Below are positions 7,469 through 35,348 of a stretch of DNA of 47,767 bases, in pieces. Origin of the DNA: Escherichia coli (lineage in GTDB: Bacteria > Pseudomonadota > Gammaproteobacteria > Enterobacterales > Enterobacteriaceae); NCBI GenBank assembly GCA_024546615.1, contig GCA_024546615.1_5040.1. The stretch is one strand, 5' to 3'. How positions within the stretch are numbered: the stretch's first letter is position 1; the number at the start of each line of letters is the position of its first letter. Below the pieces are notes generated by a model. It worked only from the letters and a program-made list of their open reading frames with translations. It made no database searches and was not told where the DNA came from. Both the position numbers and the translations under genes were made by a program.

Positions 7469-7669
7469 TCACTCCTGCGGCGGCTCGGGTAACGGTTGCC
7501 AGTGGGTTACATATTTACCGTAGTGATTCCAGAACGACTTTCTCCCGTCGTCAGGAACAATGTAGTAGTCGTGCTGAACTGCGTTATTCAACGTTTCATA
7601 CACCAGGAACTCTTTATCGGTACTACCGTTACCCGGCAACATCTCACTACACTTAATCCAGTTTGCCAT
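7469..7669 (-). CDS. DUF551-like protein (paralog of 40954-41157)
   Basis: MANWIKCSEMLPGNG...W...PLPEPP matches MSEWIKCSEQMPEPG...W..MPEAP of 40954-41157. Confidence 0.55.
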   Translation of the reverse strand: MANWIKCSEMLPGNGSTDKEFLVYETLNNAVQHDYYIVPDDGRKSFWNHYGKYVTHWQPLPEPPQE

Positions 7670-7847
7670 ACAATGTCCCCACTCGTTTTAAATCGCGCCG
7701 TGCGTGACAGCTATAAGTACCATCGTCCCACTGCACATAGTAGCGCGGTGGCTCATCAGTCATTACGTTTGCGACAACACCCGTAACGACACCGTTGGGG
7801 AACAACTTCACAAGTGTTCCGGTTGGATAACGTGGAATGGTTGTCAT
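7653..7847 (-). CDS. Hypothetical protein (64 aa)
   Basis: Minus-strand ORF upstream of DUF551-like gene. Confidence 0.4.
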   Translation of the reverse strand: MTTIPRYPTGTLVKLFPNGVVTGVVANVMTDEPPRYYVQWDDGTYSCHARRDLKRVGTLYGKLD

Positions 7848-7974
7848 AATTACTCACCCTCATACAGCGGTTTCAGTTGATACCCGAACATGACAGCGTT
7901 GTTATGCGCCACACTGCCCGCGCGGACCAGATATGTCGTACCGCGGTTGGTTGTCACTTCGTATGCGTATGGTT

Positions 7975-8340
7975 TCATTTGTCACCCTCCGACAGTTCAT
8001 CAATCAGACGCTCCAGATACCAGCGGGCCTTTTTCACATCTTCCAGACCGTTCTTCTCTTCGTAGCGCCACAGGTATTTAACAACGTTTGCCACACATAC
8101 CGCCTCGATACCAGTTTTACCAACCGTGGCGGCTTCGATAGCATCGATACACTCAATACCACCTTGTGTGTAGTGTGACGGATGATTGACCATGTCATTG
8201 ACTGCTACGGGTTCACGTTGGGCGATGATTTTTGATGTTTCCTCATGACTATTATATTGACAAACATAGTCACTGTTTACATTTTTAAACCTATCACCCA
8301 GTGAATAACCCTCGGAGCAATAATGCCTATCGGAGTACAC
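7975..8340 (-). CDS. Hypothetical protein (121 aa)
   Basis: First gene of minus-strand block downstream of promoter at 8462-8490. Confidence 0.5.
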   Translation of the reverse strand: MYSDRHYCSEGYSLGDRFKNVNSDYVCQYNSHEETSKIIAQREPVAVNDMVNHPSHYTQGGIECIDAIEAATVGKTGIEAVCVANVVKYLWRYEEKNGLEDVKKARWYLERLIDELSEGDK

Positions 8341-28667: not shown

Positions 28668-29351
28668 ATGGCTTTAGACCGCAGCAACCGCTACCCGGGA
28701 CGGTTCGAGAATCCCACAAGTGCATCACCCCAGGGCGCATTTAAAAACCGCACATCACCAACAGCACAAGATGGCTCTTACTTTGAAGCGGACTGGGCTA
28801 ATGACTGGGATGGTTTTTTCGGGCGATTACTAACCCTCGCAGGGGTTTCTCCCAATGGTAACGTGGACACAGCTTCGTCCAGTCAATACTATGACGCACT
28901 GAAATCTCTGTTTCTTCAACGTACTGACCCATTCGGAGATATCAATTCGGATGGCACGGTGGAAACGGCTCTCGCAAATCTTGGTTTGGGAACAGCAGCA
29001 AAAAGGAATGCTGATGCAAGGCTAATTAATGGCATTCCGGACATGTCTTCATTTCGCGGGGATATGATAGGGAATGGCTATATTAAAATCCCAATTATCG
29101 GCGCTAGCGGAGGACCGCAGACATTTATTTTGCAGTGGGGTGTGCATTCGACTTCTCCGGGAAGCAATGCCGCCTATAACCTGAATATTGCTTTTCCCAC
29201 CAGCCTACTATGGGCCTCTGGGGGGCGCGGCGCCCCAGGGTCAAATGCACCAATGAATGTCGGACCTGAAGGGGCGCAACAAATTAGAATTCAAAACTAT
29301 GCACCTGGCGGCGTAAACGAAAATTGTTTCTGGATTGCGATTGGTTATTGA
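28668..29351 (+). CDS. Tail fibre protein (distal/receptor-binding candidate)
   Basis: GASGGPQTFILQWG resembles the conserved LIIQWG motif of side tail fibre C-domains; immediately precedes Tfa chaperone; RBS AGGAG. Confidence 0.5.
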   Translation: MALDRSNRYPGRFENPTSASPQGAFKNRTSPTAQDGSYFEADWANDWDGFFGRLLTLAGVSPNGNVDTASSSQYYDALKSLFLQRTDPFGDINSDGTVETALANLGLGTAAKRNADARLINGIPDMSSFRGDMIGNGYIKIPIIGASGGPQTFILQWGVHSTSPGSNAAYNLNIAFPTSLLWASGGRGAPGSNAPMNVGPEGAQQIRIQNYAPGGVNENCFWIAIGY

Positions 29352-29361
29352 GGGGATAAAG

Positions 29362-29781
29362 ATGAAAAATGTTTATAAGTTTCATAATGGTTTATTTTAT
29401 CCGCCAGAGGTGGAATATGAGGCAATACCTGCTGGCGCGGTAGACGTATCAGAGGGTGAGTACAGAAAAGCATTGGGCCGCGCCCCTGGCGCCACATTTT
29501 CTGTCGATGACTCCGGAATTGTTACTGTCATTCCTGTTCCAGAACCGACGCGAGAACAATATATTGCTCAGGCTGAGACGCATAAACAGTTCTTGCTGGA
29601 GGAGGCGAGGCAGAAGATTTACGTTTGGCAAACTAAGCTCCTGATGGGGCGCAAGCTCACTGAGACAGAATCAGTCAATCTAAATTCCTGGATGGATTAT
29701 ATTGAAGCTCTAACCGAGATTGACACTAGTACAGCGCCGGATATCAGTTGGCCCACATCTCCGGGGGAATCGGCCAGTTAA
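29362..29781 (+). CDS. Tail fibre assembly protein (Tfa)
   Basis: C-terminal LNSWMDYIEALTEIDTSTAPDISWPTSP matches Tfa signature ...W..Y...L..(I/V)D.S.APDI.WP; RBS GAGGGG. Confidence 0.7.
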   Translation: MKNVYKFHNGLFYPPEVEYEAIPAGAVDVSEGEYRKALGRAPGATFSVDDSGIVTVIPVPEPTREQYIAQAETHKQFLLEEARQKIYVWQTKLLMGRKLTETESVNLNSWMDYIEALTEIDTSTAPDISWPTSPGESAS

Positions 29782-29782
29782 C

Positions 29783-30167
29783 ATGCTCAGGGTCGGTTGT
29801 TACATCAGCCGACTTAACCTCGTTTTTATAAACCATCCACGCTGACAGCTTAGCTTTGTTGGCGTCGCTGATTTCACCCAGCATCAACTCTGTCCGCCAG
29901 TCTCTGACTATGATAACTGGGACGGTAGTCAGTGGGTAACAGACTCAGATGTCCAGCATGTTGCAGCCGTCACAGTCGCTGAACTGTACGCACAGCACCT
30001 CATTGATACAGCAATGCAGTCCGTTAGCGTCATTCAGCTAAAGCTACAAGCTGGCAGACGCGGAAAAGACGAAACTGAATAATGTTCTGGATTACATCGA
30101 TGCGGTGAATACTGTAGACAAGTCCAGCGCACCAGACATCACCTGGCCGACCCCCGCCAGTAATTAA
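29783..30167 (+). pseudogene. Decayed second tail-fibre-assembly gene (in-frame TGA at 29843-29845 plus frameshift near 30042-30082)
   Basis: Frame A encodes ...DYDNWDGSQWV...AELYAQHLIDTAMQSV...; frame B ends ...KLNNVLDYIDAVNTVDKSSAPDITWPTPASN with Tfa signature. Confidence 0.55.
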
Positions 30168-30427
30168 CGAAAAACCTGACATCCTTTCCACCACTGTTGC
30201 CACCGGGACACCCTGTCCCGGTCGTACATTAACACCTTCCCGTTATCACGCATGACATCGGCTGCAATGTTTGGATCACCACCCGTGGTTTTCAGTTCCC
30301 CACTCACTGTCATTAAATCATTCGCCGGGGGTGGACACAGTTGCGTCGTAGACGTCGAGCAACCCACTGTTACGCACACACTCAGCAATACCAGGGTCTT
30401 TGATACGGTCGCGATAAACTGTGACAT
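30164..30427 (-). CDS. o-spanin (Rz1-like outer-membrane lipoprotein), overlapping i-spanin gene in another frame
   Basis: MSQFIATVSKTLVLLSVCVTVGCS signal/lipobox-like then CPPPAN proline-rich region; starts inside i-spanin gene and extends beyond it. Confidence 0.5.
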   Translation of the reverse strand: MSQFIATVSKTLVLLSVCVTVGCSTSTTQLCPPPANDLMTVSGELKTTGGDPNIAADVMRDNGKVLMYDRDRVSRWQQWWKGCQVFR

Positions 30428-30656
30428 ATTTAACAACCTCTTTATCTCGTAATTCATTGCGCTCCCGCTGTGCTTCCAGCAGTGCTATATCTTTGTCGTT
30501 CAGTTCAGTCTGGAGGTTGTCACGCTTTTTGACGAGGGTTTTATACTCTTCAAAGTCATCCAGCTTGACCGCATTTTTACCCGAAAAATAACCCATAGCA
30601 TACACTGCAACCATTATGCTACCGATTACCCCGGCGAGTATCACGTTGCGCATCAT
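30318..30656 (-). CDS. i-spanin (Rz-like)
   Basis: N-terminal TM (VILAGVIGSIMVAVYAMG) then charged coiled-coil region; ATGA overlap with endolysin stop. Confidence 0.55.
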   Translation of the reverse strand: MMRNVILAGVIGSIMVAVYAMGYFSGKNAVKLDDFEEYKTLVKKRDNLQTELNDKDIALLEAQRERNELRDKEVVKYVTVYRDRIKDPGIAECVRNSGLLDVYDATVSTPGE

Positions 30657-31216: not shown

Positions 31217-31268
31217 TTAAGCTTAATCCTAACATACAAAGGCGACAAAATGTACAAGACTAAACCAC

Positions 31269-31333
31269 GTAAAGCAGGTGACGCGGGCGGTGCATGTATT
31301 AAGCCCCGTGGTAAAGCAGGTGACGCGGGCGGT
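31269..31333. repeat. Two 23-bp direct repeats GTAAAGCAGGTGACGCGGGCGGT with 42-bp period
   Basis: Exact repeat at 31269-31291 and 31311-31333; lies within small ORF 31250-31360. Confidence 0.8.
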
Positions 31334-31363
31334 TCCAAAGTAAAACGCCGGACCAAATAAACA

Positions 31364-32346: not shown

Positions 32347-32375
32347 ACTCTAAACTACTTTGACGCACTCGTCAA
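32347..32375 (-). promoter_or_regulatory. Sigma70-like promoter TTGACG-17-TAGAGT overlapping palindrome TTGACGCACTCGTCAA (32360-32375), embedded in 3' end of upstream gene
   Basis: Spacing read directly. Confidence 0.5.
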
Positions 32376-32948
32376 CGGTAAAACTAACTTTTCTGCTTCC
32401 TGAATGTACCAGTCGTAATTCAGTGCTCCCCAGTCGAAGTCTTTAGCGTCGGCACACTCTGTCACCTTCCATCCTGCACACATACTTGTTTCGCGCACTG
32501 CATCGTGCTTACTGCGACTCTTCGTGTGGATACGCTCGTCCCACGGTGTACCAATGCTGTCGAGGTCGCCCGGTTGACCTGTAATCTCACGCATTACCGC
32601 ATTGTACACATCGTCCTTGACACCATTCTTACGCTTCCATGTACCTGGTGTACCAGTGGGCGGTAACAGCTTGACCAGTGACCCACCGTTACGCGAGATA
32701 AATACACGTGTGGTATTCTGCATCTCCTGTTCAGCGCCCCACTCAGGCCAACGCATCACCAGACGTGCCGAACGAGGTACTTTGGCGCGCAGCATGAAGT
32801 CGAACGGGTCACGGTGCTGCGTGATGAACGTGCGGATGTCAGTGTCAAACAGAAGTGCGGCTTCAGCGGCGCGGGCAACAATCATCGCCGATGGGTCTTG
32901 ATGCCACTGGTATTTGTACTCGTAACACCCTTTTCTTTTAATTTTCAC
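32355..32948 (-). CDS. Hypothetical protein (197 aa) sharing GTPWDERIH motif with 37785-38834
   Basis: Motif DSIGTPWDERIHTKS versus DSTGTPWDERIHSTS in the 349-aa protein. Confidence 0.45.
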   Translation of the reverse strand: MKIKRKGCYEYKYQWHQDPSAMIVARAAEAALLFDTDIRTFITQHRDPFDFMLRAKVPRSARLVMRWPEWGAEQEMQNTTRVFISRNGGSLVKLLPPTGTPGTWKRKNGVKDDVYNAVMREITGQPGDLDSIGTPWDERIHTKSRSKHDAVRETSMCAGWKVTECADAKDFDWGALNYDWYIQEAEKLVLPLTSASK

Positions 32949-33828
32949 GGGTTGCCTCCAGCATTTCTAAAATTCGATTGTCCCATTTCAACCATTCGGT
33001 ACAACCATCAAAACCAGATAGTCCAGCATTAACGAAAGAAGAATGAGTTAGTTTTTCGATAAATTCCATTTTTCCACCTATGCCAGATAAAACTCGGAGT
33101 AACTGAAAATCAAATGGCGTACTTCTTTTCAATTTCCTCAAGCGATATTTATAATTATTGCTGATACCGACCTTCATATATTCCCCACCTTTGGAAGCAA
33201 GTACATAAAGGGAAGCCATCTGGTTACGTTTAAATCCACTCTTAGAACAGTCTTGACATCCTTGTCCACCGGATACGTGATCTATAGCCAATTTTTCAAA
33301 ACTACCGTGAACAGGGCAAATTATCTTTATTTTATGATGATTACCTTTATATTGAGATTCCGAATAATCATACTTATCCCCATGTACTGCGCGGGCTTTC
33401 TCAATCCATTCTTCGGTGTTATAAAGAGGAAGTCGTCCTTTTCCAGGACCTCCTGCGCATTTCGCGCACCCGTGGCCTTTTAGATGATTGCCGGCTAATT
33501 GGAGGAATTCCCCATGCTCTCGACAAATGATTATTATTTCTGAATGTCGTTTTTTATACTTAACCTTCGAATAATCATACTTATCTCCATGTACTGCACG
33601 GGCTTTCTCAATCCATTCTTCAGTGCTGGATTTTTTTGTCCCACCACAAACTGGGCAGCCGGAACCAGAACAGTGAGACGTGGGTTCTTGTCGGAAATCT
33701 CCATGCAATCGACAAACAATGGTCACTTTATGTTTTGAAGTACGATACTCGACCTTCGAATAATCATACTTATCTCCGTGTACCGCACGGGCTTTCTCAA
33801 TCCATTCTTCTGTGTTCAATCTTCTCAT
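32938..33828 (-). CDS. Homing-endonuclease-like protein: three tandem zinc-ribbon modules plus C-terminal T5orf172 (GIY-YIG-like) domain
   Basis: Three repeats of EEWIEKARAVHGDKYDYS...; C-terminal YVLASKGGEYMKVGISNNYKYRLRKL...GCTEWLKW; contains three ~55-bp DNA direct repeats. Confidence 0.6.
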   Translation of the reverse strand: MRRLNTEEWIEKARAVHGDKYDYSKVEYRTSKHKVTIVCRLHGDFRQEPTSHCSGSGCPVCGGTKKSSTEEWIEKARAVHGDKYDYSKVKYKKRHSEIIIICREHGEFLQLAGNHLKGHGCAKCAGGPGKGRLPLYNTEEWIEKARAVHGDKYDYSESQYKGNHHKIKIICPVHGSFEKLAIDHVSGGQGCQDCSKSGFKRNQMASLYVLASKGGEYMKVGISNNYKYRLRKLKRSTPFDFQLLRVLSGIGGKMEFIEKLTHSSFVNAGLSGFDGCTEWLKWDNRILEMLEATREN

Positions 33829-35348
33829 TCTATTACCATTATGTAATTATTCACATCTCGCTGATAGAGAGATTTCACAATATCAGTCTCCAGATTCAAC
33901 ATTGTTGTTTTTTCCCAAGACTTACATATGGATTCCACCAAAATTTCATATTTGTTTTCATAAAAAATGACGATTCCGTCAGTATTAGTTTGCGGTACGA
34001 TTAATCCGGGTACACGAGTTACAAGTTGGTCTACCAACATTGCCAAACAGAGTTGACCTGTAATAGTAATACTCAGGAGACACTTATGGTCACAAAATGG
34101 GCTAAATTTACTCCCCATGTTCCCAAATGTACCATTAAGAGCAAGTTTCAATGCCGCATCAACTGTTTTATCTCCCGCTCGTTTTGCATCACGACGACGA
34201 ATGAACAGTTGTTCATATACGTCGCAAAAAGTTTCACTAAGGTGTTCCGGATAGTACCTATTCTTTATACTAATGGAAGGGTACATACTTGTACAGTCTT
34301 TGTTTTGTAAATTGTGTGTTTGGGTAGAATGCACAACGTAGTTCGGAATACTACTGTGAATACCTCCCAATCCGAACGAATATTCGACACCATCAACTGT
34401 GACGGTCATATCACTAAACACACCTTTTGTGGTCAGTAATTCGTCCTGTTGTTTCTTCGTGAGTACAACCCCACGAATGCGTTCCAGAATTTGATTGAAC
34501 TCCGGTCGTTCGAATTTGATATAAGGGGGTATGCAATCTGCAAGTGCAATACGTTCACGAATGGTTACTCCGGAGCAATCTACCCCGGCCTTTTCCAGCT
34601 CGTGAACGAATATATCTTTGCCGATTTTAGTGTCGGCGTGGTTCATGAAGTTACGTCCGTATTGCTTTGTCAGTTCCTCACGGAAATGGATTTTGTCGAG
34701 TGAACGTACAAAGAATTTCAGCGTCTCTCGCACGTCGTGTTTGTTATATACGATGAGGATATCTTTCTGCGCATCGTTCAGCACCATTCCGACCGGGAAT
34801 GGCAGGTCTTTTACGTTGGGGGACTGCATGCCCACTTCCAACGCCTTCAGACTGGTGCGCCGGGCTTTATTATCAAAGTGATGAATTTTGTACAGGTCAA
34901 TCTGCTCGAAAATCTGGTCGCGGTCCCATACAATTTCGGGCCACTGACCTTCGGGTTTAATTTGTGATTGTGCTTTTGTGTAAATCTGTTCCAGTGTACA
35001 GCCTGGTGTATTGACCACGTAGTGCAACACCGGATAGTCGAATGCCAGGTTATTAAATCCAATCCCACGGGCCTTACTACATCCCAGGTTGAACACAAAT
35101 TCGATTAATTGCGGTTGCTCGTTTTTGCGGTCACTAATCTCGAAGATTAACTCCATACCCGTCGCAGCGTGAATAAATGAGGCAGTGAAGATATTCGGAT
35201 ACGTCTCGATGTCCCATCCCCAGTCCCGCGGGTCCAGTGGTGCAACGCTGGAGAACGCCGAATCAGCCCCACAGTGAGGGCAATTGTGGAGGTCAGCGGG
35301 ATAATTTTTACCGCAAGTTGCATCCTCGCATTTTGATAAATAGTGCAT
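33825..35348 (-). CDS. Compact family-B DNA polymerase with 3'-5' exonuclease motifs and N-terminal zinc finger
   Basis: Exo I WDIETY, Exo II FNNLAFDYPVL, Exo III YNKHDVRE; motif A DCTSMYPSI, motif B KLALNGTFG, motif C TNTDG; N-terminal C-x4-C-x11-C-x2-C. Confidence 0.7.
   Translation of the reverse strand: MHYLSKCEDATCGKNYPADLHNCPHCGADSAFSSVAPLDPRDWGWDIETYPNIFTASFIHAATGMELIFEISDRKNEQPQLIEFVFNLGCSKARGIGFNNLAFDYPVLHYVVNTPGCTLEQIYTKAQSQIKPEGQWPEIVWDRDQIFEQIDLYKIHHFDNKARRTSLKALEVGMQSPNVKDLPFPVGMVLNDAQKDILIVYNKHDVRETLKFFVRSLDKIHFREELTKQYGRNFMNHADTKIGKDIFVHELEKAGVDCSGVTIRERIALADCIPPYIKFERPEFNQILERIRGVVLTKKQQDELLTTKGVFSDMTVTVDGVEYSFGLGGIHSSIPNYVVHSTQTHNLQNKDCTSMYPSISIKNRYYPEHLSETFCDVYEQLFIRRRDAKRAGDKTVDAALKLALNGTFGNMGSKFSPFCDHKCLLSITITGQLCLAMLVDQLVTRVPGLIVPQTNTDGIVIFYENKYEILVESICKSWEKTTMLNLETDIVKSLYQRDVNNYIMVIE

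Follow-up and report, generated by a model that had tools for sequence, protein, structure and literature searches.

A composite scar of two truncated tail-fibre assembly genes, probably left by cassette exchange, downstream of tfa in a Jedunavirus-like phage

The Tfa-like sequence downstream of the intact tail-fibre assembly gene (tfa) in the DNA studied here consists of two remnants, which lie in opposite orientations and come from different tfa genes. Within the window, by which we mean the whole stretch of 47,767 nucleotides that was analyzed, positions 29744-30167 are very likely a non-coding, non-functional composite scar of two truncated tfa genes, produced by cassette exchange and in part an invertible segment in the past. 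The scar is a Tfa-family pseudogene pair, and as such a well-documented example of an ordinary, known feature type: it is truncated and frame-disrupted, its ORF is not conserved, and it is dispensable in close relatives. A sequence-only reading of 29783-30167 had described one decayed gene, a second tfa oriented like the intact one, left behind by host-range module exchange and inactive as an inversion switch. The Tfa-like DNA, the frame break and the overlap with the o-spanin gene were all recovered in our analysis, and the view of an inactive exchange remnant is supported, but the idea of one co-oriented plus-strand gene is not, as about a third of the segment is a fragment of a convergent, minus-strand tfa gene (here called tfa′).

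Results

A fibre module imported into a virulent phage genome

The window belongs to a Jedunavirus-like myophage. Among deposited phages, Escherichia phages ZCEC13 and CWW26 are nearest to it, with 91% identity covering 76% of a 24-kb query. In ZCEC13, KpV52 and PEAT2, all of which lack tfa, a fibre gene of ~285-300 aa is followed directly by a convergent spanin gene. The homologue of the window's o-spanin gene (30164-30457, minus strand) is annotated in relatives as an Rz-like spanin and abuts the fibre gene. Backbone homology to these three phages is lost at 28858-28900 and returns at 30179, while homology to two sister contigs (L035 and L036) is back at 30163. Because backbone homology is interrupted from ~28900 to 30163, we regard the fibre tip, tfa and both remnants as an import.

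The distal tail-fibre gene (28668-29351, plus strand, 227 aa) is chimeric, with a first ~77 codons of Jedunavirus/Peatvirus-like backbone, imported sequence from ~28900 and a Gp53-like_C tip. The Pfam family Gp53-like_C was found at aa 152-227, phrog_26525 covers only aa 1-84, and from 28970 the gene shows 85% homology to the H gene of a Citrobacter braakii prophage. Inside it, at 28969-28996 on the plus strand, lies a degenerate invertase crossover-like site (CTCTCGCAAATC TT GGTTTGGGAACA) that encodes ...ALANLGLG..., and the region around this site (28929-29010) is also found in other fibre genes from E. coli and plasmids. The intact tfa (29359-29781, plus strand) encodes a tail-fibre assembly chaperone of 140 aa (Caudo_TAP, E 9.2e-23; phrog_188, E 3.3e-33). 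Its ORF is uninterrupted in all relatives compared, and the protein shares 85% amino acid identity with its closest homologue in bacterial genomes, the Tfa encoded by a P2-like prophage of C. braakii (L032).

Two features elsewhere in the window were recorded in passing. A 296-aa ORF at 32938-33828 on the minus strand (within the region 32355-35348) carries three tandem zinc-finger-like repeats of ~60 aa (TEEWIEKARAVHGDKYDYS...) and a T5orf172/MUG113 domain. It is flanked by two ORFs, 32355-32948 and 33825-35348, which together replace the single DNA polymerase gene of ZCEC13; a homing-endonuclease-like gene appears to interrupt the polymerase gene. A 36-aa ORF (31250-31360, plus strand) lies between the endolysin gene and the gene that follows it. 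This ORF contains a 21-bp direct repeat, AAAGCAGGTGACGCGGGCGGT, whose two copies each encode KAGDAGG, and ZCEC13 has a small annotated ORF in the same position.

Two tfa remnants joined head-on

Remnant 1 (29744-29902, minus strand) is the 3′ end of a convergent tfa′, comprising ~50 codons and the stop. It reaches left to 29744, within the intact tfa, and overlaps that gene tail to tail by 38 bp. The minus-strand translation of 29911-29744 is ...VRDWRTELMLGEISDANKAKLSAWMVYKNEVKSADVTTDPEHVNWPIPPEMWAN followed by a stop, and the minus strand of 29783-29902 encodes ...DWRTELMLGEISDANKAKLSAWMVYKNEVKSADVTTDPEHVNWPIPPE, the C-terminus of another Tfa. Amino acid identity is 84% to residues 89-139 of the Tfa′ of E. 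coli prophage L001 and 80% to residues 93-141 (of 141) of the Tfa′ of C. braakii prophage L032. At the DNA level, 29734-29902 matches, with 87% identity, the tfa/tfa′ junction in a P2-like prophage of E. coli that has the layout H-tfa><tfa′-gp53-like tip-recombinase. Differences between alleles of remnant 1 are mostly non-synonymous in the frames of both strands.

Remnant 2 (29903-30167, plus strand) is the 3′ half of a long-type tfa, corresponding to approximately residues 105-197 of a 197-aa Tfa and lacking a start codon. It is 73% identical in amino acids to residues 105-192 of such a protein from E. coli prophage L002 and, once repaired, 65% identical to the Tfa of HK97 (tblastn, E 1e-31). 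When its DNA is aligned with that of L002, 11 bp are missing at 30054/30055 (CAGAACGCTGA, between CAGA repeats). This deletion is the cause of the frameshift, which had been correctly placed near 30042-30082, and it brings in a premature TAA at 30080-30082, the original TAA being at 30165-30167. The latter stop overlaps the stop of the o-spanin gene by 4 nt, so that the overlap previously claimed for the 3′ end of the segment is borne out. Programmed frameshifting as a means of rescuing remnant 2 was rejected, given the 11-bp deletion, the lack of a slippery site and the absence of the N-terminal half and start codon.

The Tfa-like peptides that had been read in two plus-strand frames are indeed encoded there: frame 1 from 29783 reads MLRVGCYISRLNLVFINHPR, a stop, QLSFVGVADFTQHQLCPPVSDYDNWDGSQWVTDSDVQHVAAVTVAELYAQHLIDTAMQSVSVIQLKLQAGRRGKDETE and another stop, and frame 2 reads ...SYKLADAEKTKLNNVLDYIDAVNTVDKSSAPDITWPTPASN and a stop. 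Profile search with Caudo_TAP (PF02413) likewise showed that their similarity to Tfa greatly exceeds chance (E 1.5e-5 and 4.9e-9), and remnant 2 with its pieces rejoined gives E 2e-19, in a match that starts at DYDNW. Remnant 1 matches the same profile with E 2.9e-9. The minus fragment and both plus pieces exceed the cut-off of 22.1 bits, and what they cover of the 131 profile positions (84-131 for the minus fragment and 41-128 for the plus fragment) represents C-terminal parts only.

The two remnants meet at an illegitimate junction at 29895-29902. Homology to prophages L001, L032 and L047 ends after ...CGCCAGTC, and rightward of this point it is the long tfa of L002 that matches instead. The hexamer CGCCAG (29895-29900) is common to both parental gene types and represents microhomology of the kind expected at an illegitimate junction. 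The same remnant junction is present in L006, L007, L034 and L037-L046. Exact-pattern scans of IMG/VR and GTDB genomes for the minus/plus junction and for the deletion site gave no match; a single metagenome contig did match, and no prophage donor with the composite was found.

The closest database relatives of remnant 2 were observed to be split or truncated long-type Tfa ORFs themselves, for example at 7654-8273 of an Enterobacter kobei Mu-like prophage (L008) and in P0022/L009. One such split long tfa has a 123-aa ORF and a 90-aa ORF in place of one gene of ~200 aa. The split long-type ORFs share MW(N/H)G as their starting point, and N-terminally broken long tfa genes seem to be common.

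The scar is non-coding and identical across its clade

Neither remnant is a complete Tfa ORF with a start codon and both N- and C-terminal parts, and the ORF list of the window contains no ORF of at least 30 aa in the Tfa frames of the scar. Neither remnant lies directly downstream of a cognate fibre-tip gene in the same orientation: the plus fragment is preceded by another tfa and a stump, and the slot upstream of the minus fragment on its own strand is filled by the plus fragment, with no fibre gene. Open frames of 47 aa (minus), 57 aa (minus) and 99 aa (plus, in L006) were considered as genes and rejected, as they are by-products of the stumps, show mainly non-synonymous allele differences or are interrupted in the clade.

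The scar is carried by eleven relatives, namely metagenome contig L007 and ten public sequencing-run contigs (L034, L037-L040 and L042-L046), and in all eleven the junction, the TGA and the 11-bp deletion are identical to those in the window, which makes a clade of 12 members. In two sister contigs (L035 and L036) the fibre gene and tfa are 95% identical to those of the window, and 29745-30162 is replaced by 354 bp (L035 4384-4737). Since unrelated DNA with a recE fragment takes the place of the scar in a sister phage, the scar is dispensable, and its position is one at which pieces of prophage DNA accumulate. Within the 354-bp insert there are a strong hairpin terminator and, on the minus strand, an ORF of 82 aa that corresponds to a fragment of a RecE-like exonuclease (phrog_149, E 2.9e-12).

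These comparisons bear on two other accounts of the frame break. Nothing more than the general possibility of indel errors speaks for an error of sequencing or assembly that hides a real, functional second Tfa. The same deletion, TGA and junction were obtained from at least ten different sequencing runs and one metagenome, and because the identical scar recurs in 11 independent contigs it is not a sequencing error, which also answers the re-sequencing test that had been proposed. Even the repaired fragment would lack ~104 N-terminal residues and a start codon. We therefore assign a negligible probability to this account, which the independent assemblies refute. The other account is that of the sequence-only reading, in which a single co-oriented second tfa decayed through a nonsense TGA at 29843 and the frameshift. 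The plus frame from 29783 is open apart from this TGA, and in L006, where the triplet is CAA, a 99-aa ORF results. The TGA at 29843-29845 does occur in the first frame, as described; however, it lies in the antisense of the minus-strand tfa fragment and is therefore not a decayed codon. Moreover, the plus-frame peptide of 29783-29902 has no similarity to Tfa, the profile match beginning only at DYDNW, whereas the minus frame is 80-84% identical to Tfa′ C-termini and collinear with the tfa><tfa′ junctions of prophages. The L006 ORF is not conserved, and the TGA is found in 12 of 12 clade members. The strand assignment thus refutes a single decayed gene, which we consider extremely unlikely.

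Origin in an invertible segment that is no longer active

The region 28970-29902 (933 bp) shows contiguous DNA homology of 85% to a segment of the C. braakii P2-like prophage L032, which has the layout H(Gp53-like_C)-tfa><tfa′-Gp53-like_C-...-Resolvase/HTH_7. This homology begins at the crossover-like site within the fibre gene and stops exactly at the remnant junction. Tail-to-tail junctions of tfa and tfa′ also occur in Mu- and P2-like segments of E. coli, Enterobacter and Citrobacter that carry an invertase, and an invertase homologue was found nearby in 14 of 20 IMG/VR loci with the junction motif. Genuine segments have tail-to-tail tfa pairs that overlap by 29-38 bp, and the window is both homologous to and collinear with them. 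As 28970-29902 follows, element by element, the left half of such a segment under invertase control in P2-/Mu-like prophages of Citrobacter and E. coli, remnant 1 is the stump of that segment's second, opposite-facing chaperone gene, and the fibre tip, tfa and the minus fragment together derive from an invertase-driven host-range segment.

The crossover-like site is identical, over 28981-28996, at 13 of 16 positions to the inverted repeat TTGGTTTGGGAGAAGG of the e14 P segment (PMC12529663). It resembles the site in the H gene of L001, and it marks the left edge of the homology to prophage invertible segments. Taken alone it is not statistically significant, with one or more matches in 27 of 100 shuffles; its meaning rests on homology and position. 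The site is present as a single copy, with no inverted partner in the whole window, and a 26-bp crossover consensus had no match with three or fewer mismatches in the window.

Other components of an active switch are absent as well. A tblastn search of the whole window with the L001 invertase gave a best E of 1.2, and no second fibre tip (Sv′) in opposite orientation was found, the only tip being the plus-strand Gp53-like one, with nothing on the minus strand of 29902-30163. The segment is accordingly unable to invert at present, and the reason is that it lacks an invertase, a second crossover site and a second tip, not its orientation. The previous conclusion that this is not an active inversion switch is thus upheld, but the orientation argument given for it was wrong, since the tail-to-tail layout is the signature of Mu G, e14 P and P2-type segments.

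Low diversity of the scar and mosaic alleles around it

Among the 12 genomes, the proportion of variable columns is ~1% in 29566-30163, a block formed by the 3′ half of tfa and both remnants, and rises to 4-8% in the spanins, 15% in the fibre N-terminus, 27% in the 5′ half of tfa and 38% in the fibre tip. Between the window and L007, 3 of ~620 positions differ in 29566-30184, compared with ~6-8% in the lysis genes. The synonymous sites of the tfa 3′ half are as invariant as the scar, and protein-level selection is therefore not the cause. From this pattern, the block 29566-30163 has to coalesce more recently than the backbone. The low diversity fits a recent spread of the block and is also compatible with constraint. 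A neutral scar would be expected to vary at least as much as its neighbors, and the lower variability observed counts against our preferred explanation; the low diversity of the scar is likely due to hitch-hiking with that module of the genome which is swapped most often.

In the mosaic tables of the relatives, discrete alleles (at least 3 for the fibre tip and 2 for the tfa 5′ half) are freely combined. One pair of tip and tfa alleles is 94-98% identical to the cassette of an E. coli CPS-53-like prophage at argW, and the second of the tfa 5′ alleles shares 93% identity with the C. braakii prophage. The set with 94-98% identity is a recent mosaic between virulent phage and prophage, and it suggests a host in Escherichia or Citrobacter. 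When 29060-29565 was compared with L007, L034, L037, L038, L030 and L032, the tip and tfa 5′ alleles were seen to reassort; in this comparison the sole difference between the window and L034 was a patch of ~190 bp inside tfa.

The ORF status of the scar differs between L006 and the clade. In this 1167-bp contig (Logan SRR15706715), the tip and tfa are different and both match the allele of a Citrobacter P2-like invertible segment (L047). The tfa 3′ end and the minus stump are those of the L047 prophage as far as ...CGCCAGTC. At the junction L006 and the window agree exactly, and past it the plus fragment is ~99.5% identical to the allele of the window; with CAA in place of the TGA, a 99-aa ORF is called across the scar. 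Two readings of L006 are possible, either gene conversion from a prophage to the very end of the homology or use of the same microhomology twice.

Discussion

Possible functions of the scar

Two functions for the scar deserve consideration. It may work as DNA, with the crossover-site region, the tfa 3′ half and the tfa′ stump serving as homology arms that capture prophage cassettes. Several observations would be accounted for in this way: the block is the least variable of the region in the 12 genomes while the cassette between the arms has at least 3 tip and 2 tfa 5′ alleles, some of them 94-98% identical to E. coli prophage; over ~160 bp, the minus stump and prophage tfa′ share 87% identity; and phage recombinases tolerate ~12% divergence (PMC3945230). 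L006, with the L047 allele up to the junction in its 1167-bp contig, would fit the copying of a prophage cassette into the locus, the stump serving as right arm. A prophage-type minus fragment at the same junction is not readily predicted by a purely passive scar and counts against one. L006 is the only positive hint that the stump has acted as a homology arm, and that it did so is improbable in our estimation. On the other side, the right-hand breakpoints of the tfa 5′ alleles map to ~29565, inside tfa and outside the scar, and the sister contigs L035 and L036 retain the same fibre gene and tfa without it. The plus fragment has no partner in those prophage segments, which leaves its conservation unaccounted for, and recent spread explains the low diversity equally well. 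We thus consider it unlikely that the scar functions in this manner, and doubtful that the scar and the crossover-site region form a maintained acceptor, perhaps with prophage invertases acting in trans on the crossover-like site. If true, this would mean that a virulent lineage repeatedly steals tips and chaperones from the prophage invertible segments of its hosts, and it would explain both why the scar is the most conserved DNA of the region and why L006 has a prophage-type stump at the same junction.

Alternatively, the minus stump may supply a terminator that separates the late tail operon from the lysis genes convergent with it, by way of a hairpin at 29790-29815 followed by TTTTT. The stem of 10 bp (-15 kcal/mol) begins 9 nt past the tfa stop, the run of five T lies 6 nt downstream, and a canonical hairpin terminator occupies this position in the sister phage without the scar. 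However, the hairpin was not called by a consensus scan, its stem is disrupted in L006 and L032, and relatives such as ZCEC13 have overlapping convergent genes without a terminator; a terminator here would also leave the conservation of the other ~350 bp unexplained. No promoter or terminator was called inside the scar, no Rfam family matched it, and its folding is unremarkable (z-scores of -1.7 and -0.9). A terminator role is, in our opinion, very unlikely, and a non-functional composite scar remains our preferred explanation.

A possible history of the locus

The composite scar can be placed in the following history. The phage is a member of a virulent Jedunavirus-like lineage, and in its relatives a fibre gene of ~290 aa abuts the convergent o-spanin gene, without a chaperone. 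In the sub-lineage of this phage, a prophage-derived receptor-binding tip together with its chaperone has taken the place of the distal two thirds of the fibre gene. A first cassette, with a tip and a long tfa of the HK97/CPS-53 type, was possibly installed beside the spanin gene, and a second, the former invertible segment, may then have overwritten the first tip and the 5′ half of the first tfa. The order of these two steps we infer, and one import of a ready-made composite donor is the alternative to two successive imports; as noted above, the scans revealed no composite donor. The minus stump is fused at CGCCAG to the 3′ half of the long-type tfa, which ends exactly where the backbone resumes, and the fused long-tfa fragment later lost 11 bp between the CAGA repeats. 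The resulting scar, with no start codon, N-terminal domain, invertase or second site, is predicted neither to make a chaperone nor to invert, and likely persists almost unchanged by riding beside the most frequently exchanged part of the genome. The claim that the segment is a remnant of host-range module exchange is supported in this scenario.

The scar records how a virulent phage of the type used in therapy gained a chaperone-dependent fibre tip from temperate prophages, at a locus that, as the relatives show, keeps swapping alleles with E. coli and Citrobacter prophages, at identities of up to 94-98%. This bears on the assumption that virulent phages exchange no DNA with prophages. For host-range prediction and engineering, the natural breakpoints at ~28970, ~29565 and ~29900 mark points at which tips and chaperones can be swapped. 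For annotation, our results carry a warning: an ORF that resembles Tfa and lies downstream of tfa, like that of 99 aa called in L006 or the 46-aa Caudo_TAP ORF called in relatives, is a stump, not a gene.

Comparison with known systems

The imported module has the same arrangement as the Mu G segment (S-U / S′-U′, Gin), the P1 C segment (Cin), the e14 P segment (stfE-tfaE / tfaP-stfP, PinE; PMC12529663) and P2-like segments, namely a constant part, a crossover site, a tip, tfa and a convergent tfa′. In invertible segments tfa and tfa′ overlap tail to tail by ~30-40 bp, and the window shares this layout as well as 85-87% DNA homology from the crossover-like site through the junction. Unlike these segments, it has the left half only, its tfa′ is cut after ~50 codons, and the genome in which it resides is that of a virulent Jedunavirus-like phage, not a temperate one. 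Remnant 2 resembles the long Caudo_TAP chaperones (~190-200 aa) of lambdoid and CPS-53-type prophages and of HK97 (gp29), with 65-73% identity to their C-terminal ~90 residues; it differs from the Tfa proteins of HK97 and CPS-53 type in lacking the N-terminal ~104 residues and the start codon, in its 11-bp deletion and in following a tfa, not a fibre gene.

Truncated tfa and stf pseudogenes are known from cryptic prophages, such as tfaD, tfaS and tfaX of E. coli K-12, and partial Tfa ORFs are numerous in databases. The scar is like them in that C-terminal Tfa fragments left by recombination lie beside fibre loci. Many database matches to remnant 2 are themselves truncated, and several IMG/VR loci have tfa′ stumps fused to invertase stumps. 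What sets the window apart from the pseudogenes of cryptic prophages is that its stumps occur in a virulent phage, are fixed across a clade and belong to two Tfa types fused head-on.

Judging from the references given in PMC3945230 and from the work on e14 (PMC12529663), it is long established that fibre and chaperone modules move horizontally among unrelated phages, that they are linked to invertase crossover sites and that truncated tfa genes occur in prophages. Transfer of tail-fibre genes among unrelated phages was described by Haggard-Ljungquist et al. (1992) and Sandmeier et al. (1992), both cited in PMC3945230, which itself deals with relaxed homologous recombination involving defective prophages. 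The locus described here is like the fibre-module mosaics mentioned in those citations, as a tip and a chaperone were exchanged between unrelated phage types and the homology boundaries lie at an invertase crossover site, as proposed there. PMC3945230 found no recent mosaics (>90% identity) between virulent and temperate E. coli phages; in contrast, relatives of the phage studied here carry patches of tip and tfa that are 94-98% identical to E. coli prophage.
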